Origin: Oscillatoria princeps RMCB-10
Lineage (GTDB): Bacteria; Cyanobacteriota; Cyanobacteriia; Cyanobacteriales; Oscillatoriaceae
Direction: 5' to 3'
DNA: 64,000 nt
Assembly (NCBI GenBank): GCA_019359235.1
Contig: JAHHHT010000036.1
Location: 24,245 to 88,244, forward strand
The position numbers and the translations under genes were made by a program. Numbering within the stretch: position 1 is the first letter of the stretch; the number at the start of each line of letters is the position of its first letter. The notes beneath the pieces are model-generated. The model did not search any database, was not told the DNA's origin, and saw nothing but the letters and a program-made list of their open reading frames with translations. Of this stretch, positions 6,719 through 29,384 are shown piece after piece.

Positions 6719-7285
6719 TCAGGATGCCGGAGCGGGCTCAGAGGCAGGAGTGGGTTCAGTGTGACTCACGTCAGGAGCGTGTTGCTTGACTCCTTGGCTC
6801 TGAGCTTCTAGAGTCGGCGAAACTTCTGCCCCAGGGATTGCGCCAGAGCTTTCACCGAAATTAATCCTCACCACTCGGCGCTGCGCTTCTTGCACCTTAG
6901 GCAGCCTCAGCGTCAAGATGCCATTCTTGTAATCGGCTTCCACCCGCTCGTTCTGAACCGGCACAGGAAGAGAAATCGTCCGCTCAAATTTCCCGTAACG
7001 GAATTCCGACCGGAAATAACCTTTTTCTTCCGCCTTGTGTTCGGATCGGTGCTCGCCGGCAATATAAACGGCGTCCCGAGTGACTCGGATATCCAAATCC
7101 TTCGCTTCCATACCGGGGATTTGCGCCCGCAGGAAGAGCTGGTCATCCGTATCTTGAAGTTCAACCGCAGGGGCCCAAGTCATCTCGTACTCCCGCCTGC
7201 CGCCTGACAGTTCCTCAAACAGTTCGTCAAACTGACGGCGTAACGTTTCTATTTCACTGAATGGTTGCCAACGTATTAATGCCAT
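6719..7285 (-). CDS. hspA: Hsp20/alpha-crystallin family small heat-shock protein with C-terminal Pro/Ala/Ser-rich tail
   Basis: 188 aa; N-terminal MALIRWQPFSEIETLRRQFDELF, alpha-crystallin core WAPAVELQDTDD...GILTLRLPK. Confidence 0.9.
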   Translation of the reverse strand: MALIRWQPFSEIETLRRQFDELFEELSGGRREYEMTWAPAVELQDTDDQLFLRAQIPGMEAKDLDIRVTRDAVYIAGEHRSEHKAEEKGYFRSEFRYGKFERTISLPVPVQNERVEADYKNGILTLRLPKVQEAQRRVVRINFGESSGAIPGAEVSPTLEAQSQGVKQHAPDVSHTEPTPASEPAPAS

Positions 7286-8032
7286 ACGTTCAGTTCCCTC
7301 CGTTACAGTTTATGGGTTCTCAATCTTTCAGGATTGCAGCAGTCTATCAGCTTACAGCCTATTTGGCTGTAAGCTCAATTTCGAGAAACCAATCGACCGG
7401 ACGCAAGAAAACCAGTTCAGCTGTGAGAGTGGCTGCAGAGAACTCACGGATCAGCGTTGCTGAGATGAGCGCTACTGGTTTCCTCGCTCACAATTTCATT
7501 ATGTCTCGCTGCACAGTGCATTCAGTGGGGGAAACCCTACTGTGTCAGTGGTATTGCCCGCACCTTTTGTGAGAGACACTTCCGGCGGCGGCTTGACGCA
7601 AATCTCGGGCTATTGTTGGGTTAGGCAAAGCGGAAACTTTTGCCGGAGTCTCAGCTTATCGCACCCGTTTCGATAAGCCAGACAGCCCTTGTGCGGGGTG
7701 AGTTGCGCCGCAACGCAACCAGCAGTGCGGGGAATATTTCTTGGGAGTTTAATCTGTTCAGTCGTCTGCTGCGCGAAAATAAAGGAACAGCTTGCCGGCA
7801 GCCAGAAGCCCGGTTTTCCCCCCCGCTAGCTGCTTCATATTTTTTGCGACATCTTGCTAACTTGCTTGACCGGCCTTTTTCAGTGCCGGCCTGGGAAGCA
7901 TTTCTGAGATAAAATACAGGCAAGGAATCCAGCAGCAGCGCGTTGCCTGCCGAGCCGGTTTGGTCGATTTAGCCCTTGAACTTGATTCAAAGAAGTGCCG
8001 CCAGAGCGAACAAAAGTAGGGGCGGGCTCACT

Positions 8033-8690
8033 ATAAATCTCTCGGAAAAGCCGAGAATTTTTATAAACCCGCCCCTGCTCTAGCAGTTCTAAATGATTTG
8101 TGCGAGTCTCTCTTTTCTTTGCTTGGCGCTCTACCCAAGGGGCGAGCCGCTAGCGCGTCTATGGCGTCTTGGCGGTTTATTAAAAAAAATAATACTCACT
8201 AGCAATCTCTCGGAGAAGCCGGGGAGATTTACAAACCGGCCCCTACCACAAGGGTTCACCCCGAGGGGCGGGTTAGCTAGCAATGTGTCGGGGAAGCTGA
8301 GGAGATTTATAGCAGTGGACAGCTCAGTAATGGACAAGGCCGGAACGCTGCCCTTACAAAGCCGCTGTAAGCGCTCCGCACTTCCGTAGATTGGAACAAC
8401 CAAGATGCCTGTCCTGCGAGGTATATCCGCAGCCAGTTAGGTTAGGACGTAGGACAGGCGTCTCGCCTGTCCCTATCCCTACTAGCAAGTGAGATGCCCT
8501 GTCCTTAACTGACTGTCCCTTGCTATATATCCGCAGGGACTGCGTTTGGCCTGCCCTCAATGTCTAATGTCCTAACCAATTTGGCTAGTGCTATATAAAC
8601 CGGCCCCTGCCACAAGGGTTCGCCCGCAGGGGCCGGTTCGCGAGAAATCTCTCGGGGAAGCGGAGGAGATTGATCAACCCGCCCCTACAG
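8033..8690. repeat. cluster of three copies of a composite hairpin repeat (AAATCTCTCGGrGAAGCsGrGGAGATT + ATAAACCsGCCCCTrC)
   Basis: Copies lie at 8033-8088, 8203-8325 and 8590-8690. Each carries two perfect inverted repeats, for example aaccggcccctgccacaagggttcgcccgcaggggccggtt. Related ATAAACCCGCCCC elements lie at 56740-56830 and 58985-59140. Confidence 0.7.
8436..8520. repeat. GGACAGGCGAGACGCCTGTCC-type palindromic repeat
   Basis: ggacaggcgtctcgcctgtccctatccctactagcaagtgagatgccctgtcc. Copies lie at 32283-32330, 38100-38200, 43900-43985 and 51838-51985. A derivative lies inside a coding sequence at about 40290-40350. Confidence 0.75.
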
Positions 8691-10187
8691 CTAGTGGCTG
8701 GACTTTTCTCCTAATTTGGGCGTCCTCGGAGTCAGGAGGCCATCTTTTAGGGCAGCTTTTGCTTTGTCCTTCTGGAGTTGAGCCGGCAGAGAAACGACAG
8801 GTTGGAACTGGTCGCAACGGACTTCAGAGCGCCAGTCGCCTCGCTGTGGCGGCCCAGCTGTGATGGGGGAAGAGGGATTTATTTTATAGCTTATCTGGAA
8901 TTCAATAATTTTAGTAAATCTAAAAATTGCCAGGGGGAGAAAGCCGAACGTGGAGCGGCAGTATGAACCGCCCTGCCGAACGCAGCAGCCGGGTGGCTCG
9001 CTCTGTGCTGAGATGCGAAAAATCCCAGAGGAGTCACAAGAAACCAGGTTTGTGGGGGTGGCTCAAAGGAGTCAGCTGGGTTGTGGACAAGCAGAGAGCC
9101 GGCAGGCACGCCGGTTCTGGCAAACTTGGAGAGCCGTGCGCCTGCCGCCTGAGGGCGGTGGGGAGGGATGGGGCCTGTAGCAAGTGAATTTGCGCAAAGC
9201 CCGGGGCTTGCCTTTCTGTGATTTTTGCCAGAAAATATTGCAGCCGGCCATCCCAACCTTTTTACAGGCTGCTGGCCGGCTAGACAGTTTTAAAGAGCAA
9301 ATCCGTTAGTTGCTGTTGATTGCCGTCTCTGCTGGCAGACGACCGGCTTTCTTCAGATTGGCACGATTGCTTGACTTTTTGCACTTTTTGCCCATTGCCG
9401 CCGGCAGCATCTCATGCGGCGGCAGCCGCTTGTGGCAAGCTGGCACAATCGTATAGAGCGGTTCTCAGTTGCACAAACCGCCGGGAAAGAAACTTAACCC
9501 CCCTAGCAAAAGCAGTTGCTCCCCTCCCCTTGAAGGGGAGGGGTTGGGGGAGAGGTCAATCTGTACCGCATCACACTAAAAATCCCTGTATGCAGCAGCT
9601 GCCTTTCAGCTGATGCCCGCAATCAGCCCGAGAAAACTTCACTTCACACCGGCTGAAAGCCAGAACAGCCGAGCTTGGAAAAAGCCGGCGCTCCGCACCT
9701 GTAATGCCGCGTTCATAAAAGAGTTGTTTGCCGCACTCTGTGCGAGTGCGGCTGTGCGCGGATAGCGCCCAAGGCAATACGGGTGAGAGAAAGCATCGGG
9801 TGTGCGGTTGAACAAACCGCCAGTATAGCAGAGAGAAGAGCGGATTCGGCATCTTTCTTCATGCGAGCTTCCGCCCACAGAACTAGCGCTCCTCTCTGAC
9901 CAGAAAGGTTTGATGTCGTTTGATGCCGCCAGAGGTGTGCCCAACTTTTCGGTTGGCGACACACTCCGGCCATCCTCCGCGCTCGCCGCCTGAACTTCTA
10001 GGGAACCGGGCTGACATCTGCAAGTGAGAATTGTCGCGGTTCCCTGACAGAGAGTTGCAATGGTTTAGAGGGCCCGTCTGAAAGCGGGGTGGGGGGAATT
10101 TTTTCATCTGTCTTCCTCCCGGTCGCCCCCCCTGACAGGCCATCGCCTTAACGGGAAAGGAAAGGGAAGGCAAGGCTCGGGCGCTTC

Positions 10188-10610
10188 TCAAGCAACAGCA
10201 GCGGTTTCTTCTCCGGATTCCGACTCGTCAGGCACAGCGGATTCACCTACGTAGATGAGGTGAATGTGTTTGTACCCCAGGCGGATTTCAAACTGATCCC
10301 CTGGCTTGAGTCCCATCTCTTTAGTATAATTTGACCCAATTACCAGCTGACCATTTTTGTGGACACTGACGCGATAAGTCGCTTCTCGGCCCCGGCCATC
10401 TTTGGTTCCCGTTGGGTCTAAGGCAATGCCCTTAGCCGCCAGCACCGCGTCGTAAAAATCGGTGAGATTGACTTTGACATTGCCACTCGAGCTGGTGCTG
10501 TAGTATCCGCAGCGCTTTGCTGTTTCCCGGCGCGGCAGGTGGGAAAGCTCTTTGACTTTTTGCAGGAGCGCCTTCCCGGTAAGGGTTTGGTATTCTTGTT
10601 CTGGTGCCAT
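10188..10610 (-). CDS. AbrB-family transcriptional regulator, cyanobacterial cyAbrB (CalA-like)
   Basis: 140 aa; C-terminal AbrB/SpoVT swapped-hairpin domain YRVSVHKNGQLVIGSNYTKEMGLKPGDQFEIRLGYKHIHL and N-terminal region typical of cyAbrB proteins. Confidence 0.85.
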   Translation of the reverse strand: MAPEQEYQTLTGKALLQKVKELSHLPRRETAKRCGYYSTSSSGNVKVNLTDFYDAVLAAKGIALDPTGTKDGRGREATYRVSVHKNGQLVIGSNYTKEMGLKPGDQFEIRLGYKHIHLIYVGESAVPDESESGEETAAVA

Positions 10611-12579
10611 AGGTTCTCCGAAAATTGTTCTTGGATCTCACGACAATCTAATTTAAGCAAAAATAGGTGCTGTTTGACAATAGGGTTTTTCGGGAAAAGC
10701 CAAAAAAGCAGCCAGCCTTGAGGGGCAACGGGTCAAGTCAGACTCAGATTGCCCCCCTTTGCTTTCGCTGGCGGGGCATCCCAGGACTTATGCCGAGGAA
10801 AGTTGCGGCGGTTTTGCGTCCCCTCCCTGTTTTCAGCTCTCGCAACCAGGAGTTGCGCTTGTCCGGGGTTGCCGGAAGGAATTGTGAAGAAATTCTCGCT
10901 GTTTTAAACAAAGGCGCTCTCATGGGGAGCCCCTAAACTGTTGAAGTTGTCTGGAAGCGGTCGCCTTTTTAGGGGATGGAGAGCGCCACGCCTTTACCAG
11001 TGGCTTCAAGGGCGGGTTTACCCAATCGGGTGCGGGCCGGTGCGTGCGAAGTGGAGATGGGGTCTTGCCGCACGCCGGGCTCCTTGGAATTCCGTCGGGG
11101 GCGAGCCAACTGCTGCGCAGAGTGCCGGCGAGACTAGACTGTCCAAAAAAGGCTCCCCTTCCGCAATATCACGTCCAGTTGATTGTCCGGCGAGCGGGAT
11201 TGAGGGCGAGAGGGCGGCAGGGGGGAAGAGGATTGAGGGGCAGTGGCTGAGAGGGGGAGAGCAATTAATTGCGGTCAATTGACCGGACACTATATAAACG
11301 AGATAAACGAGCAATTCCGGGGAGACGGGGGAATGGGGGAGGAGAAATTTTCTTCCATTCCTGGCACGCTCAGACGCTTCCAACCCTGTCCTCCAGACGC
11401 GGCTATCTCAGGACAACTCCGGTTTCGGCACTCCCCACCGGCTCGCCACCTCCCCCGGAAGGCAGGTTTTTTTCCCCTTCAACAGCGCCCAAACAGCACC
11501 GATTGAGGGAGCCGAAAGGCAAGCGCCACAACGGCTGAATCCGCACAGCTTGCAGCGCACCGGCAGGGGATTGTCAGCCGGTGCTGACGCCCGCTCCCAG
11601 TCAGGTGCCGGTCAGACAATTCAAAGCAAGCAACGCGCTCACCTCGCAACGCGCAACCCCACGGGCAGCAAGCGTACTGGCTCCTGTTTAGCCGCACAGA
11701 AATGCCACATTTGAGGTGAGCTTCACCCGCCATACTGCCTCGCACACCCGGGCGGCACCGCTGGCAAAACTGGCTTTAAAAATCGCCTGCGTGGCCACGC
11801 TGTTCTATCGTCTCAGGTGAATTGACCTTAAAAAAGACCCTCACGCCCATCCCCATCCCCAAAATGGGAGAGGGGAGAAAAAATCCTGTCTTTTTCTCAC
11901 TCCCCCTCACCCCAAGTGGGAGAAGGGGGCTGGGGGTCCCCTCTGGGGATGGGGAGAGAGGGGGGTGTTGCAGTGTGAAGTGCCGGTCTGCCAGAGACAT
12001 GATATTAGATGAGTATTTTTTCTCGACGCTCCTCCCGTCAAGCGCCAAAGGAAATTGCTCTTGTGAAGCACGCAAAACTGGCAAGCGCTGTCGCCCCACA
12101 CAGGAGGCGATTTTGTCAGCCGGCAACAGACCGGGCCTTTCAAACGGTATCGAGCGCCGGCTTTGAGGATATCCTTTTTGCTAAAGTGCAGATTTAGGCT
12201 CCTCAGTCAGGCCGGCACTGTCGGGCCAGCAGCACTAATAATAGCAGCCGGTCACGCTGGCACCGGCATAAAGAAAGTCTTTATCTTAAGAAGTCACAGG
12301 CGCATATAATATTGATTGCGCCAACCGCTGCGCGCGCCCGAATGCGGCATTGCTCGCACAGGGGAATTCGCTCGCCACAGGGCGCAGATGTCCTGTTTCC
12401 ATTCAGCCGGTGTCGCAGACGGGCAGCACTTTCTGCGAGCCCCTGTTCCCGCAGGTGCGGCTTTTGCCACTGGCGAGCCCCCAAACGGGGAGAAAGCCCG
12501 TTTGGGTGGGGAGCGCTGTTGGATATCGCCCGCGCTCGCCGAAGGCTCGGGATCTCTGTGGTTTATATTTGGACTGGAG

Positions 12580-13164
12580 TCAGCCAGCCTGCGCTTTGCC
12601 CCCCTTTCCAGAGGTGGCTGCAGTCTTTTTCTCCGGTTCAGAATCGGCAAACGCCGGTTTGAGCAATTTCCAAGCCTCTTCTGCCTCTGGCAGCAACCTG
12701 TCGAAGTCTACTTTGGCCGCTGCCAAGCTACATAAGGTTTTAGCAAAAGCCTTATCTTGAGCTAGCTGGATTTGTTCAGGGGTTAAAGGAGTCATCGAAA
12801 AGACGGCTTCAATTAGCGCGATATATTCGCTCGCCTTTTTCTGCTGATCTTGCAAATCCGCTCTCTTTAAGGCGAATTCAGCTACGGTTCTGGCGGCCTT
12901 CTCTATAGGTGACAAGTCCTCGCCAGCATCGGCCTGCTGATTTGATGCGGTTTTCGGTGACTCTACGACGATCAGATCCTTGGCTCCCAGTCCGTCAGGA
13001 AAACTATTGCTGTCGATTTCAGAAGTCTCTTCGCTCATCATGCGCATCACCTCATCTAGCGCTAGCGCCCGCGTTTTTTCGCTATCTTCTTTACCCGGAA
13101 CCGTAATGGTTAGACCGGGATGGTCTTTGACTGTGTAGGTTACCGTTAATTTACGCCGGCCCAT
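12580..13164 (-). CDS. hypothetical protein (acidic, Ala/Lys-rich)
   Basis: 194-aa ORF with protein-like composition, and no competing long ORF on the other strand apart from GC-rich shadow ORFs. No domain is recognised. Confidence 0.45.
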   Translation of the reverse strand: MGRRKLTVTYTVKDHPGLTITVPGKEDSEKTRALALDEVMRMMSEETSEIDSNSFPDGLGAKDLIVVESPKTASNQQADAGEDLSPIEKAARTVAEFALKRADLQDQQKKASEYIALIEAVFSMTPLTPEQIQLAQDKAFAKTLCSLAAAKVDFDRLLPEAEEAWKLLKPAFADSEPEKKTAATSGKGGKAQAG

Positions 13165-14771
13165 AAGTTATCCTCGGGTTAGACTATTTGGTATTTTACA
13201 TTCTAACAAATTCTCTCGCAGGAAGTGCGCGTGTGAGTGGAAATCCGGGCTCGGTATCGGGTTGGTAAATGGTGGGGAACGCTTCCAGGATTCCGGAGGC
13301 CGGCCTCCTTTGTCAAGCACTTCCAGAAACTGCCGCCTATTTGATGCTAAGGCGATCGGGAGCATTCCATTTTTACATCTCCGGCACAGGCGGGACGCCT
13401 GTTGCGGGAGGCCCGGAACGCACGCGACTGCAAGCTTCTGTAAATTTTATCGCTTTTGGCCGGGCCCCTAATTTTATAATGGCTCTCTCAGAACCTGGTC
13501 TTTAGGCTTTGAGCGAGTCAAACACTGAGAGCGCCAGCGCTCCCTCCCAGCCTCTAGGCGTGCAGTCTTTTTCACCCCCCTCAAAAACCTGCCTAAAGCC
13601 ACTTTTAATGCTTGCTTCTGCAACGGGTGCCGGAAATTCCGGGATGACTCATGCTGCCGGTGCGTCGCCTGTCTTCCCGATTCCACCGGCACCAAAAACT
13701 GGCCCTTATCTACCCTCAACTGCGGATGTTTACCGCTCGACAAAGCAAGCCAGATGTGGGAATTCCTCTGTGAGTTCAAGCGGTTGAAATTGCGCCTCCT
13801 TAAAAGGCGCTTCCAGAAACACAGTGATGCCGGCGCTGCCCCGAATTCGTTGGGCGCAAGCCTTATCTTCCAGAACACTTGACCGTTCAAGGGTGGCGCG
13901 ATAGCCGCTGGTCTTCATCCAAAGCTTCGGCGAGGAAGCCAGTGAGAGCGTCAGCTAGCGCGCGCAGGTCAACGATTAAACATCAGCTGAATAACGCGGG
14001 TTTCTGTGCCTGGAAACACCGGTTTCTGGGATTGCCCCGAGCGGTTCTGTAGCGTGAGAGCCTGTCGAAAGGCGGCATGAGCTGCGCTCCTGAGAGCTGC
14101 CACCCACAAGTCACTAACCGAGCGCCAGCCTTGGGCGGGCGACTCTTCTGCGCCAGTCTTCTATGCCGGTGAGGGCACCGGCTACAGCCTCAACACTGAC
14201 CCGCCGAATTTTACCCCGATACCGGGCGGTTGCAACAGTAGCAACCCCGGTGGCAATCCAAGTCATCCTCAATCTGCGGTCAGCGATGCTCGTCTGAGGT
14301 TGAATGCCACACAGGAGAGCCCCGGTTGAAATCCTCACAGTTTGTCGCCCCACCGGCTCGGACAGTGGCACTCCGATCATTTTTGCTTGAACAATCATAA
14401 TATCTCTGAGGCGGGGCACTTGGCATTGGGCCTCGCGCATTGCCCATCCGCACCGCCCCGGCCATACTATAGATTAATCAACCGGACATAGTATCAGATA
14501 GCGCGGCGAGACATACCCCTCCCTCACCCGATGCCGGTGCATTTCCTTCCCCGCCCGGTCGCTCGGATTGCAGCACAAGCCGGTGGCTCCAGGGTTTTAT
14601 TATAAGCAATCTACAGGATTTTATATAATTTATTTAAAGAGAAAGAGTTGTGAAAGTGCCGGCTAGAGCGCCGGTCAAGTATTCTTCTGAAGCGGTGAGA
14701 AACCGGGGGCAGTCTCCGTGCCGGTAGCCGCCCTACGGCTATAAGACCCGAATTTAGGTGCTCCCATTCTA

Positions 14772-14866
14772 AGAAACCCGGTTTCTGGGAGAATAAGAAA
14801 CCGGGTTTCTTTGGGCTGAAACGCCCGAATTTACAGGCTCCCCTCCCAAGAAACCCGGTTTCTGGC
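14772..14866. repeat. three copies of the GAAACCCGGTTTC palindromic repeat
   Basis: aagaaacccggtttctgggagaataagaaaccgggtttctttgg...caagaaacccggtttctgg, immediately downstream of the recG 3' end. Confidence 0.8.
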
Positions 14867-15030
14867 ACAGCTGGGTTAAAAAGTTTAAAATTCGGTTAAT
14901 TGCTTATCATGTATCTCGGTCGGGGCGTCCTGCCGCACGGAAATTAGGGGCGCTCAACCGAACTGGATATGGCGCTGGCAGGGCCAGCGCCAAGCTGCAA
15001 AACCCCCACAAAAAACGTGGGGAGCCGCCG

Positions 15031-19349: not shown

Positions 19350-20150
19350 CTATTCCTCAGTTGGCTCGTCGTCGGTATACGAGTCGCTGTCATCCATCTC
19401 CTCGTAGTCGAACTCCTCTTCAGCAGCTTCGTACTCTTCGTAGTCTTCTTCAGATACGGCGTCGAGTTGACCGTGACGCCCTTCATAAATGGCATCAGCC
19501 AGTTTCCCCAATATTAGCTTAATCGAGCGGATGGCATCGTCATTCGCCGGAATCGGGATATCCACCAAATTGGGATCGCAATTGGTGTCCAGCAGCGACA
19601 CGATTGGAATATCTAGCTTCTGGCACTCTTGCACCGCGTTGTACTCCCGCCGCTGGTCTACGATGACCACTATATCGGGCACTTTCCGCATGCTTTTAAT
19701 GCCGCCTAAATATTTTTGCAGTTTGCTCATCTCGCGGCGCAGCATTGAGCCTTCTTTTTTGGGCCGCAGCTCCAGAGCGCCGGTTTCCTCCATGCGCTCC
19801 AGTTCTTTCAACCGCTCCACCCGGCTTTTGATCGTGGCCCAGTTCGTCAGCATTCCGCCCAACCAGCGCTGGTTGACGTAGTAGGCACCGCACCGCAGCG
19901 CTTCTTGCGCGATAATGCCAGCGGCTTGGCGCTTGGTGCCGACAAACAGAACCTTCTTGCCCTGCTCAGAGGCTGTCCGCATGTACTCATACGCCTCCTC
20001 CATCAGCTGGGCGGTCTGCACCAAGTCGATGATGTGAACGCCGTTGCGTTCCGTGAAGATGTACCGGGACATCTTGGGATTCCACCGGCGGGTCTGGTGA
20101 CCGAAGTGTACCCCTGACTCCAAAAGCTGAGCCAATGAAACAACTGGCAT
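19350..20150 (-). CDS. rpsB: 30S ribosomal protein S2 with acidic C-terminal extension
   Basis: 266 aa; [19 protein letters not shown]...[10 protein letters not shown] is the classical S2 sequence, followed by an Asp/Glu-rich tail. Confidence 0.95.
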
Positions 20151-20307: not shown

Positions 20308-20841
20308 TCAGGTTCCCAGGCGGCGCTCGCTCTCCGCAATCCCACCGGCTCTCAGCCATTCTATCGGTTCCTCCTCTGGTCTATCTGGGTTGACCCACAC
20401 AATATCTCGGATTTCCAGCACATGTCCGGCAGCTTGGCCAAAAAGTCTCCTCACTCTCTCATCCAGAGAGATTACGGTCTTGTCTGTTGCCAGTGCCGCC
20501 TCAATCAGGCGGAAATCCTTAAACATCGCTTCCCTCTCGCTGTCGCTAGCGGCAGTGCCTTCGATTTGCTTCCATAATTCTTCATTTGTTTCAATACCAG
20601 CTTGATATTCCAGCTTCTTCTTTGCGACCATACGGCGTCGCCATGTACGAGCAAAGTTTGATTCGTGTTCAGTCCACTCATCTCTGATATCGGGTGTCAT
20701 AACAACTCTGTGACATATATCCAGGACAGCTAGGAGAAAATCGCGGCAGCGTTTCGATGTTGGGTGCGTTGCTTCCTCTCCACCTGCTGAATGCGCAACA
20801 GAAGCATCTATCACTAAAAGTTGGGAAACTTTTGCTGCCAT
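20308..20841 (-). CDS. PIN-like domain protein (putative nuclease partner of the upstream ATPase)
   Basis: 177 aa. Its start codon lies 1 nt after the stop of the ATPase gene. It has an N-terminal hhhDxS strand (LLVIDASVA, D12), acidic E55/E58 and ALATDKTVISLDE (D120, D127), matching the four-acidic-residue layout of PIN folds. Confidence 0.55.
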   Translation of the reverse strand: MAAKVSQLLVIDASVAHSAGGEEATHPTSKRCRDFLLAVLDICHRVVMTPDIRDEWTEHESNFARTWRRRMVAKKKLEYQAGIETNEELWKQIEGTAASDSEREAMFKDFRLIEAALATDKTVISLDERVRRLFGQAAGHVLEIRDIVWVNPDRPEEEPIEWLRAGGIAESERRLGT

Positions 20842-20842
20842 A

Positions 20843-22222
20843 TCAGCCGTTTAACAGGCGAGCCTCCGCAGCGTCCAAATAGCGGCTTTCTAGTTTCAAA
20901 GACACATCCCCAAAGTCTTCAGGCCAGTCTCCAAACGCTCCCGCCTCATCCAGATCCGCGCTGCTGACTTCTGTAACACCATCCTCTCGCCGTGTGAACC
21001 AATGAAGTTTTACTTCCTCTGGCAATATCTTCCCCTCTGCGACTAGAGATTGAACCGCCAGCAGCAGCACTTCGCTGTGGGTTTCCAGAACGACTCGCAC
21101 ACCCCGAGAAGCCGCCTCGGCTAATACCTCTGCCAAAGCAGCTTGAGCGCGAGGATGCAGGTGAATTTCTGGCTGTTCTATGTAAACTAATTGCCCTGGT
21201 TCCGCTACGAGAAGGGCAACAAGCACCGGCAAAACCTGAGACACTCCGAACCCAACGTCAGCAATACTCACCATATCTATTACCCCACCGCGACGTGGCA
21301 AACGACCCACCTGCAGTTCAACTTGCGTGTCATCTACCTGTTTGGCCCCCACTTTACAAGTCAGTCCCAGCGTTTCCAGAAAACGGCCCAAGTCTTGCAG
21401 ACGGTTATCTTTATTTTTTTGCCATTGATTGACCACACTAGCAACGTAATTTTCAAACGTTCCCTGAAAGTCGCTGCCAACCGCTGTTATTTTGTAAGTT
21501 CGTTCTGGATTCCCTCGCAGTCCGGGAACGTGTATTACCTTGCGTATGTGATGTTCAAACAACTCAGATGGACTGCTATTAATGAGGCTCACTGACGGCT
21601 CGGCAAACTTTTCTTTACCTGTGCCTAATGCAAATTCCAAAAAACACCGATTTCTCCTCACACACCACTGGATTTCACTTTTTATTTCTTCGGAAACATT
21701 AGATTTTTCTATAAAGGTTAATAAGCTTGTATAAAATACTCCAAGCCTCGTCGGTTTGAGAAAATTTCTAATATCCTCCTGAGTCATATCCTCCGAAATA
21801 TTAATAGATTTACCCTCCTTATTATACGCCATCTCAACGAGTTCAATCTTTTTGGTTGGACGCTTCTTAAAAACATTGCTGATAGATTGATGCTTGTGGA
21901 TTTCAATTTTAACAGTAAAGCTATCACTACTGTTCTTCTCAGACAGCCGAGAAAATAACTGTCCCGCTAAAGTAAACCGAACATTGGGCCCGTCCAGCAG
22001 CAGCGGGCCCGGATCGTAAGTCGCTTCCAACGTTTGCTTGAGTAACAGCAGCGGCTGCATGATGCTAGATTTACCGGAACTGTTGGCACCGGCAAGAATC
22101 GTCAGCGGACGGATTTCCACACTGCACTCTTCGTACAGAGACTTGTACCCCCGTACTGAAATGCCCGTAATTCCTTGGGCAGAATCTTTCTTCTGACTTT
22201 TGGCATAGGTAGCTTTACTCAT
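20843..22222 (-). CDS. ABC/AAA_21-type ATPase with a DUF3696-like C-terminal module
   Basis: 459 aa; Walker A LTILAGANSSGKSS, Walker B/D-loop VYIEQPEIHLHP, H-loop LETHSEVLL and a C-terminal ...GDWPEDFGDV tail. A large insertion separates Walker A and Walker B, as in OLD/AAA_15/AAA_21 ATPases. The local GC is far below the genome average. Confidence 0.8.
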   Translation of the reverse strand: MSKATYAKSQKKDSAQGITGISVRGYKSLYEECSVEIRPLTILAGANSSGKSSIMQPLLLLKQTLEATYDPGPLLLDGPNVRFTLAGQLFSRLSEKNSSDSFTVKIEIHKHQSISNVFKKRPTKKIELVEMAYNKEGKSINISEDMTQEDIRNFLKPTRLGVFYTSLLTFIEKSNVSEEIKSEIQWCVRRNRCFLEFALGTGKEKFAEPSVSLINSSPSELFEHHIRKVIHVPGLRGNPERTYKITAVGSDFQGTFENYVASVVNQWQKNKDNRLQDLGRFLETLGLTCKVGAKQVDDTQVELQVGRLPRRGGVIDMVSIADVGFGVSQVLPVLVALLVAEPGQLVYIEQPEIHLHPRAQAALAEVLAEAASRGVRVVLETHSEVLLLAVQSLVAEGKILPEEVKLHWFTRREDGVTEVSSADLDEAGAFGDWPEDFGDVSLKLESRYLDAAEARLLNG

Positions 22223-22262
22223 GGTCTTGGCTCCGGCTCATCTCCTCTCAGCATATCAATTT

Positions 22263-23216
22263 TTACGCCTGCAGTTCAGCATAAGCTGAGTATACTCCCC
22301 TCACATTATACCAGTTCAGGAAAATTCGCGCAATCTCCAGAGCTAACTGAGATTTACCCCTGTCAATCAGCCACTGTAACAGAGGAGCCATTGTCCGCTC
22401 GTTCAGTCTTCCCCCCAGGGAGAGCGCCCCCCAAAGCAGCCGGTGCAGCCAAGTCATTTGAATCATCATTCGCACCTCCCAGGTGGGATGCTTTTGGTAG
22501 AACAGCACCCCCATGCGACCGCGCTGAATTTCTTTATCAATCAGCGCCGGCAGCTGCTCCAAGTCAAAGGGGGGATGCCAGTGGTAGCCGGCAGCTGCTG
22601 GGCATTTAATCAGTTTCAGCCCCAGCTGCTTTAGCCGCACGCCCAGTTCCAGGTCTTCCCAGCCGTAAAGTTGAAACCTCGTGTCAAACAGACCGGCTTT
22701 TTCTAACCATTTGCGGGGAATAGCGACATTCCCTGTAGCGAAATAAGCCGCTGAAAAATCGGTGATCTTGTAGGGCTCAGCCGTGGGGTTATCGAAGTTC
22801 GCCGTGTTGATAACGCGACCGTATGTGAACACCCGATCCCCTCCCCACTCCTGAAATCCCCGCAGCAGCGCCTCCGCGTGCGCCCCGATAAAATTCTCCG
22901 TGACAACTAGATCGCTGTCAATAAAAATAATAGTGTCACCGGCAGCCTTTTGTATTCCTAGATTCCGGGCGGCAGCTGGCCCAGTGTGGTCTTGACAGAA
23001 CCGGCGCAGGTGGGGAAACTCAGCTGAGTGTTCCTCCAACCACTCCATCGTACCATCCGTAGAGCCATCATCCACCAGCACCACCTCGTAGCCGGTGACG
23101 GCGCTCTCACCCCCCAGCTGCTGGCGTTCCAGCGCTCGGAGGCACTTTTCCAGAATCGCCCTGCGATTGTAAGTTGGAATCACGACACTGAAAAACACTT
23201 CTTCCCCCCGCAGCAA
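22263..23216 (-). CDS. family 2 glycosyltransferase
   Basis: 317 aa; VVIPTYNRRAILEKCL...VVLVDDGSTDGT and a DxD-type motif FIDSDL. Confidence 0.85.
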   Translation of the reverse strand: MLRGEEVFFSVVIPTYNRRAILEKCLRALERQQLGGESAVTGYEVVLVDDGSTDGTMEWLEEHSAEFPHLRRFCQDHTGPAAARNLGIQKAAGDTIIFIDSDLVVTENFIGAHAEALLRGFQEWGGDRVFTYGRVINTANFDNPTAEPYKITDFSAAYFATGNVAIPRKWLEKAGLFDTRFQLYGWEDLELGVRLKQLGLKLIKCPAAAGYHWHPPFDLEQLPALIDKEIQRGRMGVLFYQKHPTWEVRMMIQMTWLHRLLWGALSLGGRLNERTMAPLLQWLIDRGKSQLALEIARIFLNWYNVRGVYSAYAELQA

Positions 23217-23497
23217 ACCTTCTGAGCGGACGCACTTGACATCAAACCGCTAAATCGACTATTTAGTTGAATATTCTTGAGAGAGTTAATCTTCGCGCTT
23301 CTCACTGTGAACCCTCCAGCCAAAGTTCCCACACACGCCCTCGATCGGGCTGCCCACACCTGCGCTTCCCTTGACTGTCGGGCGGAGGGGATACTTTCCT
23401 CCGCCTCTCCGCACCGGGTGGGGGAGTTGGGGGGGGTGAGGTTTGTTCCCTTGTTAAGCTGACAGCCTCGTTTTTCCAGGCAATGGAAGTGTGCGAC

Positions 23498-24400
23498 TCA
23501 AGGCGTGCCATCTCTGCCATCCCGTACCGCCCGCACAAAGCAGTCAAGTTCTTTCTCAAGGCATAGTAACCTATTTCGGCGCTGCCCAGCAGTGGGCGGA
23601 ACCCCACCCCCAACCCCCTTCCCGCTTGCGGGGAGGGGGCTAAGAGTGGGGTGTGGTTGGAAAACGTTTGAATCGTCCCGGTGCGATGCCGGTATGTCGC
23701 TCAAGTTATGGTTAAAGTTCAGGTTATTTCGCTCCACCGGCTTGATTCCCTGTTTCCACTCCGGATTGCCACCGAAACCGCCCTTGACAGTCGAGTTAGA
23801 AAGGCAGCTCTTAATGATGTAGCGCTCAGTTTTATTCAAGCTGTCTCTCCCCGGCGCTCTGTTCCAGTTTATACCCAGCCGTTTCAAAGGCTCAGCAATT
23901 CCTTTAATTTTCGGCTTTACCTTGACTGACAGCCCTCTCCCCTTCTGGGAATTATTCCACTCTTTGAGAGCTTTTAAAAGTTTGTCATTGCGACTCAAAT
24001 ATCCCCCCTTACTTCCAGCGCCCATCCCCAAATTCTCCCGCCTTAAATCGAGTGCTAACGCCATGTTTGTGCCTGACTGCTTTGGGTGAACTGAGCGCTC
24101 ACAGACCTCTCCTCCGATTTCGGCTCTCCTGTACTTGACGTGGAAAACCCCGTTTTTTGGGCGCAGGGCACAGGTGCTAGGGGAGACAAAACACCGGCCA
24201 CCGCATGCCTTTGAGTCAATTAATAAGTTTCGCTTATCGCCAGAAGTCAGGGAGTTTTCCATTTTTAATAAATGAACCTTGTCTGTGGGGCGTTGCGGCG
24301 CGTAAGGGTTTTTTGCTATTCTTGCCATCGGCGGAGTGGGAGCCGGCGGGGATGAATCGCCCCTGGTGGGTGGAATTCTGTCAGACATTATAGAATACAA
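23498..24400 (-). CDS. orphan Lys/Gly/Asn-rich hypothetical protein
   Basis: 300-aa ORF with no competing ORF over 130 aa. The N-terminal part contains CGGRC...C...C. The composition is odd (Pro-rich N-terminus, then K/G/N-rich), and the region is dotted with small hairpins. The gene may be decayed. Confidence 0.35.
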   Translation of the reverse strand: MYSIMSDRIPPTRGDSSPPAPTPPMARIAKNPYAPQRPTDKVHLLKMENSLTSGDKRNLLIDSKACGGRCFVSPSTCALRPKNGVFHVKYRRAEIGGEVCERSVHPKQSGTNMALALDLRRENLGMGAGSKGGYLSRNDKLLKALKEWNNSQKGRGLSVKVKPKIKGIAEPLKRLGINWNRAPGRDSLNKTERYIIKSCLSNSTVKGGFGGNPEWKQGIKPVERNNLNFNHNLSDIPASHRDDSNVFQPHPTLSPLPASGKGVGGGVPPTAGQRRNRLLCLEKELDCFVRAVRDGRDGTP

Positions 24401-24978
24401 GATTGCACAGGTTTTTGCAGAGGCGACAGATTACTCTTATGCCCCCGACATTCAGAGGCGGCTAAGCCTCTCAAGCGGTTTTTGGGAGTGGGGAGCATTG
24501 AATTCTGGAATCCATTGGCGTCATTATACCACAGACTTGGGCATTCATCTCTCACCGGCAGATATTGTGAGAGTGTCCTGCCGGATGCAGGAGCTAACGA
24601 CGGCTTCCCCAGCGGCGAGCGCGAGGGAAGGGCGAGGCCGGTGCCGCCGGCGCAGAAGTTTTCCGCCTGAAAACTCTCTATTTTGCTTTTCCCCCTCTCC
24701 GTCTATCTATTAACCGCATCGCTCAGCTATCCAGACTTCTTTGAGCGGAAGTATTTTTCGGGCGTTGCAGGTTGGCGGGATGATCGTGCAGGTAGGGGCA
24801 GGCCACCCACGGAGACTGCCCTGTCCGAAGTGCGAGGGAGCCCCACGGGGGGATTGCCCGTGCAGTTTCATGCCAGCACTGTGCAACGCCATTTTTCGAG
24901 TGGGGGCGGGCTGATTGCGCTGCCCAGTGTGCTGGCCTATCCGGCTCGCCCGCCCCGGAGCGCCGGCGAGCCGGAACC

Positions 24979-25596
24979 TCACAGCTTTTTAGGGGCAGCA
25001 CGCCCCAGCAAGCGAATCAGGGCAACGCCGGTCAGAGCGGAAACGGCAAGCCAGGTCACAGCCAAACCCACTAACTCGCCGAGGAACAGGCGCGTGGACA
25101 GGCGAACAGCCCAGCCCACAGCCCAGCCCAGGGGCAGCCCCAACGCCCAGCTGGCGGCACTGGCAAAGATCCAAGTCCCATCTTTGGCGACCTGCTTTTG
25201 GATGGTCAGCCACTGCGCCAGTCCAGTCAAAGCCCCCACTAGCGCCCCGTCGAAAACCCCATGCACCAGCCTGAATGCGATATTTTCGTTTGTTGGTGCC
25301 ATCCAGCCCAGGGCACCCAGGCTGCTCGCCCCGATTAAGCCCCAGCTGAGGGCACTCGCTAATATCCACCGGCTCGCTTGGGGGAAGAGCTGTCTGAGGA
25401 CAGCCCACTGCGCCAAGCCAATCGCCGCACCGCCGGCCAACCCCTGCACCACCCCCACATAAGGTCTGACACCGATTTCAATAAACAGCAGACTCACCAA
25501 AAAGCCCACCAGCGTGAGAAACACCCACTGCAACCAGAAACTCCGTTCCTTGCTGGCGAGTTTTACAGGGGCATAGTAATAGAACGTTGCTGACAT
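24979..25596 (-). CDS. hypothetical integral membrane protein with internal duplication
   Basis: 205 aa with about 6 hydrophobic segments. It contains the repeated motifs GxAxGLAQWxxL and WxxxxALSWGLIG / WIFASAASWALGL. Confidence 0.6.
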   Translation of the reverse strand: MSATFYYYAPVKLASKERSFWLQWVFLTLVGFLVSLLFIEIGVRPYVGVVQGLAGGAAIGLAQWAVLRQLFPQASRWILASALSWGLIGASSLGALGWMAPTNENIAFRLVHGVFDGALVGALTGLAQWLTIQKQVAKDGTWIFASAASWALGLPLGWAVGWAVRLSTRLFLGELVGLAVTWLAVSALTGVALIRLLGRAAPKKL

Positions 25597-27961: not shown

Positions 27962-29164
27962 ATGGGTCGCGCTAAAAAAGTTGTTCTGGCATATTCCGGC
28001 GGAGTCGATACCTCGGTCTGCATTCCCTACCTGAAGCAGGAGTGGGGTGTTGAGGAAGTGATTGCCCTGGCCGCCGATCTCGGGCAAGGAGAAGAACTCA
28101 AGCCGGTACAGGAAAAAGCGCTCAAATCGGGTGCTGTTGAATCCCTGGTGGTGGACGCCAAGGAAAGCTTTGTCAAAGACTACGGATTTCCAGCGATTCA
28201 GGCGAACGCCCTCTACGAAAATCGCTATCCGCTCTCGACTTCCCTCGCCCGCCCGCTGATTGCCAAGCTTTTAGTAGAAGCCGCTGAGAAATACGGCGCT
28301 GATGCGGTGGCTCACGGCTGCACCGGCAAGGGCAATGACCAAGTGCGCTTCGACGTTTCGATTGCGGCGCTCAACCCCAACCTGAAAGTCCTGGCACCGG
28401 CACGGGAGTGGGGGATGAGCCGGGAGGAAACCATCGCCTACGGGGAGAATTTTGGCATTCCCGCGCCGGTGAAGAAATCTTCTCCCTACAGTATAGACCG
28501 CAACCTTTTCGGGCGCAGCATTGAGGCTGGCCCGCTGGAAGATCCGGCGACGGAACCGCTCGAAGAAATTTATGCCATGACTAAGGCAATCGCCGACACT
28601 CCTGACGAGCCTGAATACGTGGAAATTGGCTTTGAGGGCGGCATCCCGGCCAGCCTCAATGGCCAAGTCCTGCCGGCGGTGGCGCTCGTCGAGCAGCTCA
28701 ACCAGGTGGTTGGCAACCACGGCTTCGGGCGCATCGATATGGTGGAAAACCGGCTCGTGGGCATCAAATCCCGAGAAATCTACGAAACACCGGCACTGCT
28801 GGTGCTGATCCTGGCTCACCGCGACTTGGAGAGCCTCACCCTCACCGCAGATGTCACCCACTACAAGCGCGGTCTGGAAGAAACCTATGGCCAGCTAGTT
28901 TACAATGGCCTTTGGTACAGTCCCCTCAAGGCTGCTTTGGACGCTTTCATTCAGCAAACCCAACAGCGGGTGTCGGGGACAGTGCGGGTTAAGCTGTTCA
29001 AAGGCAGCGCCACGATCGTCGGTCGCCGGTCTGACTATTCCCTGTACAGCCCCGATTTGGCCACCTACGGCGCTGAAGACCAGTTTGACCACAAAGCCGC
29101 TGAAGGCTTTATCTATGTCTGGGGGCTGCCCACTCGCGTCTGGTCGCAAAAAACTAGGGGCTAG
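27962..29164 (+). CDS. argG: argininosuccinate synthase
   Basis: 400 aa; N-type ATP-PPase motif [13 protein letters not shown], then ...[14 protein letters not shown]... and a canonical ArgG C-terminus. Confidence 0.95.
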
Positions 29165-29176
29165 AACGCCTGTGAC

Positions 29177-29262
29177 AAAAAACCGGGGTTCTTGAAAACC
29201 CGGTTTCTTAGAGGTGACAAGAAACCGGGGTTCTTGAAGAACCCCGGTTTCTGGCCCCCATT
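29177..29262. repeat. four copies of the GAAACCCGGTTTC-family palindrome directly after the argG stop
   Basis: aaaaaccggggttcttgaaaacccggtttctt...gaaaccggggttcttgaagaaccccggtttctgg, followed by a CTTGGCG heptamer array at 29291-29330. Confidence 0.8.
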
Positions 29263-29384
29263 CCATGACTTTGTTTGTGAGAGCCCTCTCTTTTTTCTTT
29301 TCTTGGCGCTCTTGGCGTCTTGGCGGTTTATTTAAGAAGTAATTTTCACAAATCAAATAGAACCGCCACAGCACCCCGCAACCG

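Follow-up and report, generated by a model that had tools for sequence, protein, structure and literature searches.

A cyanobacterial gene pair beside rpsB encodes an NsnB-like ATPase and a PIN-fold protein distantly related to the HEC-03 anti-phage pair

The gene pair and its products

The 64,000-nucleotide (nt) stretch of the Oscillatoria princeps RMCB-10 genome considered here (positions 24,245 to 88,244 of contig JAHHHT010000036.1, hereafter the window) carries two minus-strand open reading frames (ORFs) that lie 1 nt apart and are flanked by rpsB and a glycosyltransferase gene, an arrangement that agrees with the original prediction made from the sequence alone. The upstream ORF (20843..22222) encodes a 459-amino acid (aa) ABC-type ATPase of the OLD/AAA_15 clade that resembles NsnB and the HEC-03 ATPase and ends in a DUF3696-like C-terminal tail. 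The downstream ORF (20308..20841) encodes a stand-alone PIN-fold protein of 177 aa, a putative Mg-dependent ribonuclease effector whose family lies outside Pfam. The junction between them (20839..20845, minus strand) reads ...GGC TGA t ATG GCA..., with the ATPase stop codon at 20845-20843, a single spacer base at 20842 and the PIN start codon at 20841-20839, and this spacing is consistent with translational coupling. As described below, the pair is a distant and unannotated relative of HEC-03 with an NsnB-like ATPase, rather than a new kind of system.

Pfam searches place the ATPase in the ABC/OLD class with strong matches to AAA_15 (2.7e-26) and AAA_21 (2.5e-25), in agreement with the class first proposed for it. 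The tail is a borderline match to DUF3696 (aa 399-437, E 4e-4, 21.0 bits against a cut-off of 22), and close homologues are named DUF3696 proteins by NCBI. Among PADLOC models, the best match is to NsnB of Menshen (4.3e-58, aa 18-440), followed by HEC-03B (2.6e-43, over nearly the full length of the model) and PDC-M55A (1.6e-38), with AriA (9.6e-28), HEC-01A and GajA scoring lower; PDC-M55, whose ATPase model matches the window protein, is not described in the papers that literature searches found. Fold comparison shows a resemblance to Septu, retron, PARIS and Gabija ATPases.

An alignment of 75 orthologues shows that the nucleotide-binding motifs quoted in the original prediction are all present and are at least 97% conserved. 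These are the Walker A motif, or P-loop, GANSSGKS (aa 45-52; 22067..22090, minus strand), in which G45, N47, S48, S49, G50, K51 and S52 reach this level, and a span (aa 322-383; 21074..21259, minus strand) that contains the signature-like DVGFGVSQ, the Walker B motif YIEQPEIHLHP and the H-loop ETHS. The Walker B segment LVYIEQPE (21167-21190, aa 345-352) has EQ where ABC ATPases usually have DE, and this substitution is itself at least 97% conserved among the orthologues and is identical in the HEC-03 ATPase. In ABC proteins, a change of the catalytic glutamate to glutamine permits ATP binding but slows hydrolysis. Because EQ replaces DE, the window ATPase may act as a nucleotide-binding switch.

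Two further regions of the ATPase differ in conservation. A hypervariable insert of about aa 85-225 (21548..21970, minus strand), which coincides with a trough of AT-rich sequence, has a mean column conservation of only 0.15-0.55, as compared to 0.8-0.97 in the catalytic core; within it, conservation over about residues 100-220 is 0.15-0.45. By analogy with HEC-03 (Payne et al., bioRxiv 10.1101/2024.01.29.577857), the insert is proposed to be the region that senses a trigger. The DUF3696-like tail (aa 399-459; 20846..21028, minus strand), which reads HWF...GAFGDWPEDF...RYLDAAE, is better conserved (0.68-0.85) and is predicted to be where the PIN protein docks, a role that would parallel AlphaFold 3 models of NsnB with NsnC (PMC12065111).

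The small protein is less easily recognized. Searches of Pfam, NCBIfam, PHROGs, PADLOC and the sequences of PDB, whether with the single sequence, with a profile or across 29 family members, gave only chance-level matches, and no Pfam PIN model matched the protein. Its identity as a PIN protein came only from comparison of folds. The predicted model, built from a 29-sequence alignment, has a predicted local distance difference test score (pLDDT) of 92.2 and a Rossmann-like alpha/beta/alpha PIN fold, with VapC toxins as the closest folds. The putative catalytic acidic residues (20461..20808, minus strand) are D12 (20806-20808), E55 (20677-20679), D109 (20515-20517) and D127 (20461-20463), together with a conserved D120. 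They are placed after strand 8-11, in helix 50-59, in helix 100-117 and after strand 122-124, the positions expected of a PIN tetrad. In an alignment of 266 members, D109 is invariant, and E55 (265/266), D12 (261/266), D127 (258/266) and D120 (253/266) are nearly so. The suggestion that the 177-aa partner has a PIN nuclease fold is borne out by structure prediction and by these conserved acidic residues, although the residues first singled out need revision: D12, E55, D120 and D127 are indeed conserved, E58 is mostly K or R, and D109, the likely third catalytic aspartate, had been overlooked. The family also has conserved motifs of its own, W149-x-N151-P152 and W162. It is large, with 2269 clusters at 50% identity (E up to 1e-3), and nearly all of the best 150 are stand-alone proteins of about 170-200 aa.

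Relation to HEC-03, Menshen and other ATPase-effector systems

It was originally thought that an ATPase of this type paired with a PIN-like protein could not be assigned to any named system. That claim falls because HEC-03 (Hma-embedded candidate 3), described in a preprint by Payne et al., is a DUF3696 ABC ATPase with a VapC-like PIN protein, and both of its genes are homologous to those of the window; exactly this architecture has been experimentally validated. Defence against phages in E. coli requires both HEC-03 genes, and the system is toxic on induction (bioRxiv 10.1101/2024.01.29.577857). The pair tested against phages comes from Pseudomonas cichorii ATCC 10857 (WP_025259138.1 and WP_025259137.1; bioRxiv 10.1101/2024.01.29.577857). 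The ATPase of this pair, WP_025259138.1, carries a DUF3696 annotation, and the two genes overlap by 14 nt. The window pair has the same two genes in the same order, likewise overlapping or nearly so, with a VapC-like PIN gene directly downstream of a homologous ABC ATPase gene whose product has a DUF3696-like tail, and the partner in both cases is a small stand-alone protein. The two ATPases are 30% identical (E 3e-27) and have NSSGKSS, DVGFGVSQ and EQPEIHLHP in common, with the H-loop region reading ESHSE in HEC-03.

The relationship between the PIN proteins is more remote. Alignment of the two families with hhalign (266 versus 120 sequences) gave a probability of 95% and an E of 3.6e-8 over the N-terminal 88 columns; runs with less input gave an E of 0.044 (single sequence) and a probability of 37% (small alignments). 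A global profile alignment pairs D12, E55, D109 and D127 of the window protein with D(E)5, E52, D110 and D129 of the HEC-03 PIN protein. Furthermore, a hidden Markov model of the window family ranks HEC-03 PIN proteins next after its own members, above about 900 unrelated control ORFs from the fetched loci. On these comparisons, both window proteins are homologues of the HEC-03 pair, the PIN protein only a remote one and its family about 20 aa longer. The settings of the two groups are also different, in that HEC-03 was discovered inside Hma systems of Proteobacteria, whereas the clade of the window is mainly cyanobacterial and lies among housekeeping genes. A practical point concerns nomenclature: PADLOC-DB 2.0.0 (PDLC04147/PDLC04148) designates the PIN protein HEC-03A and the ATPase HEC-03B, the opposite of the preprint, in which HEC-03A is the ATPase, and this could confuse annotation.

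The other instructive comparison is with Menshen (Li et al., PMC12065111; system of Millman et al. 2022, as cited there). Here NsnA is a ParB-DUF262 sensor with a ParBDB, NsnB is an ABC ATPase with a DUF3696 tail in which GxG replaces SGG and the DE dyad is lost, and NsnC consists of an inactive PIN-like N-terminal domain fused to a C-terminal nuclease or toxin domain (PMC12065111). AlphaFold 3 models set the PIN-like domain of NsnC on the DUF3696 tails of NsnB (PMC12065111). The window ATPase is like NsnB in its ABC head and DUF3696-like tail, its GxG signature and its altered Walker B motif, and the partner of the ATPase carries a PIN-fold domain in both cases, which suggests that contact between tail and PIN domain may be common to Menshen and the window pair. 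The differences are equally clear. Walker B has EQ in the window protein and EN in S. silvestris NsnB (PMC12065111), and the window PIN protein stands alone at 177 aa with its DEDD residues conserved, unlike the inactive, toxin-fused PIN domain of NsnC. No NsnC model matched the PIN protein. A gene for NsnA or another DUF262 protein is not conserved near the cassette in 80 homologous loci, with one of 145 neighbours matching the NsnA model, and a DUF262 gene turned up only in the Dolichospermum locus described below, on the opposite strand and at a distance of 3.5 kb. Since NsnA is missing, and since the PIN protein occurs by itself, without a toxin domain and with its acidic residues kept, the defining features of Menshen are absent and membership in that system was rejected.

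PARIS (AriA-AriB), Septu (PtuA-PtuB) and Gabija (GajA-GajB) also combine an ATPase with an effector, but their effectors are Toprim, HNH or helicase proteins unrelated in sequence to the window PIN protein, and the window ATPase is distinguished from theirs by its DUF3696 tail and a different insert. No AriB model matched the PIN protein, though AriA models match the ATPase, and PARIS and Gabija were rejected as assignments, their defining parts being absent. Classical VapBC was rejected in the same way: the upstream partner is a 459-aa ATPase rather than a VapB antitoxin, and no small conserved VapB-like ORF was found upstream of the PIN gene.

Linkage, genomic setting and origin

One genome per species was scanned, 185,579 species genomes in all, and 194 stretches were found to encode a relative, of which the best 80 were kept. 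The two genes are strictly linked, and they have co-evolved. The gene immediately upstream, in the same orientation, encodes an orthologue of the ATPase (47-84% identity) in 79/80 loci, and the lone exception is cut off by a contig end. Both ORFs are full length in all 79, and the pairwise identities of ATPase and PIN protein are correlated (r = 0.81). Among 77 homologous loci, the genes are 1 nt apart in 29 and overlap by 11 nt in 18, and their spacing falls between -11 and +15 nt in 74. No third conserved gene, whether for NsnA or for an antitoxin, was found across the 80 loci. The carriers in this set are mostly cyanobacteria but belong to at least six phyla, and include Acidobacteriota, Planctomycetota, Chloroflexota, KSB1, Poribacteria and one proteobacterial metagenome-assembled genome. 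The cassette occupies other sites in Microcoleus, Floridaenema and Pseudanabaena, and orthologues are also found in Trichormus variabilis ATCC 29413 and Nostoc sp. PCC 7524.

In the window, the cassette is followed by rpsB (19350..20150), tsf, a hypothetical gene and recG, and is preceded, 40 nt away, by the gene for a family-2 glycosyltransferase (GT2; 22263..23216). The glycosyltransferase-rpsB junction was surveyed in 71 metagenome contigs that have an orthologue of the glycosyltransferase gene and enough downstream sequence. It was empty, with rpsB next, in 29, and held the cassette in 3 and a GAF histidine kinase in 5. Because the site is empty in 29/71 contigs, the gene pair is accessory. 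In the five kinase contigs (L083, L085, L116, L140 and L156), the gap between the glycosyltransferase gene and rpsB encodes, on the opposite strand, a sensor histidine kinase about 470-510 aa long; the description as GAF-type is a call from reading the sequence, and a further contig, L111, has a kinase fragment there. The idea that the junction is a defence hotspot was rejected, the alternative occupant being this histidine kinase.

The low GC content of the locus had been taken as a sign of horizontal acquisition. The AT-rich trough is real, and the lowest-GC 600-nt window of all 64 kb starts at 21401 (0.395, about 4 standard deviations under the mean), but a GC content of 0.36-0.42 is confined to about 21450-22050, the part of the ATPase gene that encodes the insert (0.413 for aa 58-258), and over its full length the cassette has a GC content of 47-50%, as compared to 55% on average for the window. 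GC content at third codon positions (GC3) is 0.455-0.457 in the two cassette genes and 0.61-0.69 in their neighbours. However, the GC3 of the cassette is below that of its flanks in 71/72 homologous loci, by a mean of 0.12 and whatever the GC content of the host, and its AT bias is therefore no mark of recent arrival here. At the chromosomal site shared with other cyanobacteria, divergence of the cassette (57-62%) is similar to that of the flanking recG (about 66%) and hypothetical gene (about 48%), and a neighbour-joining tree of the cassette roughly tracks taxonomy. With the GC3 drop family-wide, the site shared, divergence like that of the flanks and a tree near taxonomy, the case for horizontal acquisition from low GC is doubtful. 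The cassette is probably an old resident rather than a recent arrival, and its history is better explained by descent and repeated loss than by recent transfer; repeated insertion at the same chromosomal site is possible.

Few other signals were found around the genes. The region upstream of the ATPase (22223..22313, minus strand), as read from the sequence, consists of the 40-nt intergenic spacer after the glycosyltransferase stop codon together with TGGTATAAT, an extended -10-like element at 22305-22313 that falls within the 3'-terminal part of the glycosyltransferase gene and precedes the ATPase start by ~85 nt. A consensus promoter scan found no full -35/-10 site upstream of the ATPase, which leaves TGGTATAAT as a lead only, and no convincing promoter or terminator, no flanking direct repeats and no tRNA or Rfam RNA were found at or near the cassette.

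Elsewhere in the window, about 7.7 kb (7300-15030) is gene-poor, with no ORF of at least 200 aa and no Rfam match. Plausible small genes at or beside this region are an Hsp20-like ORF (6719-7285), an AbrB-like ORF (10188-10610) and an ORF at 12580-13164. Between the glycosyltransferase gene and a membrane-protein ORF, a second stretch of ~1.7 kb (23217-24980) has only low-complexity overlapping ORFs on both strands and no Rfam or tRNA match. The sole tRNA gene reported by ARAGORN in the window is a selenocysteine tRNA (anticodon TCA; 29178-29272, minus strand), directly after a 400-aa ORF at 27962-29164.

A predicted defence function and its alternatives

The reading favoured here, which we hold with good though not full confidence and by analogy with HEC-03, is that the pair is a two-gene anti-phage module of the abortive-infection type and of the HEC-03 kind. 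The defence logic of the original prediction thus remains the best reading, though not its view that the module would be of an undescribed type. In its favour are the ATPase-PIN architecture, homology to a tested pair, the linkage and co-evolution of the two genes, a hypervariable insert in an ATPase whose core and tail are conserved, a junction that is empty in many contigs, and an ATPase fold like those of other defence systems. The analysis itself shows the two folds with their conserved motifs, the strict linkage and the homology of both proteins to HEC-03. Defence function, sequestration of the effector by the tail, sensing by the insert and an RNA target are all drawn from HEC-03, Menshen, PARIS and Septu, and on these analogies the following scheme can be proposed. 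The ABC ATPase would form head-to-head oligomers in an ATP-dependent manner, and its conserved DUF3696 tail would keep the PIN nuclease inactive. Recognition of a phage-derived trigger by the hypervariable insert would shift the ATPase to another nucleotide state or conformation, and this would release or activate the PIN protein. It would then cut RNA, most likely tRNA, rRNA or mRNA, as VapC-type PIN proteins do, with the result that translation would halt in the infected cell and phage multiplication would be blocked.

A number of observations weigh against this reading. The EQ in Walker B could mean that hydrolysis of ATP is weak or does not occur. The profile-profile link to the HEC-03 PIN protein is significant in the N-terminal half only, and the PADLOC model of that protein had no match on the window PIN protein at E up to 10; the same model found a control, P0390, at 9.4e-86 and a member of the window family, P0268, at 0.0047. 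HEC-03 lies in or beside other defence systems, whereas the window pair is flanked by the glycosyltransferase gene and rpsB. Across the 80 genomes, neighbours are mostly housekeeping genes, among them Hsp70-like proteins (17), GT2 (13), CAAX proteases (11) and S2 (9), and few of the 145 immediate neighbours match defence models, so that the proposed survey of homologous loci gave no signal of a defence island. No homologues were found by tblastn on PLSDB plasmids or INPHARED phages, and the cassette was found on only one of 2.9 million IMG/VR contigs. Finally, the gene order glycosyltransferase-cassette-rpsB-tsf-hypothetical-recG is kept in Oscillatoria, Symplocastrum, Coleofasciculaceae and Nostocales. 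Defence genes usually turn over fast, and such long synteny over three cyanobacterial orders is unusual for them.

Two loci are exceptions to the housekeeping context and count in favour of a defence role. The single IMG/VR contig (L081, 4650-8344; IMGVR_UViG_2925334634_000004) is prophage-like, and its cassette, with a PIN protein 41% identical to that of the window, adjoins genes for Abi_alpha, a phage-integrase-family protein and a small terminase subunit, much like accessory prophage cargo. In Dolichospermum sp. LEGE 00240 (L044, 8952-13123), a cluster directly downstream of the cassette and on the other strand encodes GmrSD_N/DUF262, HEPN (MAE_28990/RiboL-PSP) and an AAA_15/AAA_21 ATPase, along with a 318-aa protein without a Pfam match, and looks like a separate defence system.

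The retained site and the missing island context can also be read in other ways. The pair could be a toxin-antitoxin-like addiction module without a dedicated phage role, in which a VapC-like PIN toxin is held in check by the ATPase as an unconventional protein antitoxin, and which would persist as its loss is harmful or as it stabilizes its region of the chromosome. The nearness of the PIN fold to VapC toxins, the tight coupling of the genes, the toxicity of induced HEC-03 (bioRxiv 10.1101/2024.01.29.577857), retention of one chromosomal site across orders and the lack of a defence island are all in keeping with this proposal. Yet there is no small VapB-like DNA-binding antitoxin, the gene order is the reverse of vapBC, the hypervariable insert suggests recognition of a ligand or trigger, and the homologous HEC-03 pair defends against phages. 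We regard an addiction role alone as unlikely, with the proviso that toxin-antitoxin and abortive-infection roles are not mutually exclusive and this alternative therefore overlaps the favoured one.

A further possibility is that the cassette is a domesticated cyanobacterial complex for RNA processing or stress response rather than immunity, for instance one that controls components of translation, an example chosen because the cassette lies directly upstream of rpsB-tsf. It would account for the synteny just described, for a cassette tree that roughly follows taxonomy, for divergence close to that of vertically inherited flanking genes and for strong purifying selection at the motifs of both proteins. 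It fits poorly with a spread as patchy as 194 stretches in 185,579 species genomes, the empty junctions in 29/71 contigs, the other sites in Microcoleus, Floridaenema and Pseudanabaena, the occurrence in Acidobacteriota, Planctomycetota, Chloroflexota, KSB1 and Poribacteria and on a prophage-like contig, the lowered GC3 in 71/72 loci and the homology to a validated defence pair, and is improbable. Least credible is decay from Menshen (NsnABC) into a non-functional remnant through loss of NsnA and of the toxin domain of NsnC. That NsnB is the best PADLOC match of the ATPase (4.3e-58), and that NsnC begins with a PIN-like domain predicted to bind the DUF3696 tail (PMC12065111), would agree with such a history, but the two-gene layout with full-length ORFs is intact in 79/80 genomes, no conserved NsnA/DUF262 gene is nearby, no NsnC model matches the PIN protein, and the latter retains the DEDD residues that the PIN-like domains of NsnC are without (PMC12065111). 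With the defining parts missing and the layout intact, this explanation was rejected as close to refuted.

The pair forms a natural link between HEC-03 and Menshen, with a DUF3696-tailed ATPase that has an apparently active PIN protein here and an inactive PIN adaptor there, and this link could help to explain how the tail controls an effector. A broader interpretation, which is tentative and rather doubtful as a whole, has three joined parts. The first is that the cassette represents active stand-alone PIN effectors that form a very large family, with no fewer than about 2,000 clusters at 50% identity, and that domain and defence databases miss. The second is that a two-gene core with NsnB-like ATPases, HEC-03 included, would be ancestral to Menshen, in which the PIN protein would have lost its activity and come to serve as an adaptor for other toxins, with a DUF262 sensor gained in addition. 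The third is that the cyanobacterial pair would have stayed at one chromosomal site beside rpsB-tsf from a time before Oscillatoriales, Coleofasciculales and Nostocales diverged; if true, this retention would be unusually long for an immune module.

The gain is incremental, because ATPase-plus-nuclease pairs are well known and the exact architecture has already been validated; new here are a large, hidden family of PIN proteins, a connection of HEC-03 with Menshen and synteny of long standing among cyanobacteria. Orthologues occur in strains with genetic tools (T. variabilis ATCC 29413 and Nostoc sp. PCC 7524), and direct testing against cyanophages is therefore possible. PADLOC 2.0.0 matches the ATPase only, as NsnB, and neither PADLOC 2.0.0 nor Pfam has a model that matches the PIN protein. 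A likely defence system of filamentous cyanobacteria thus goes unseen by current annotation.

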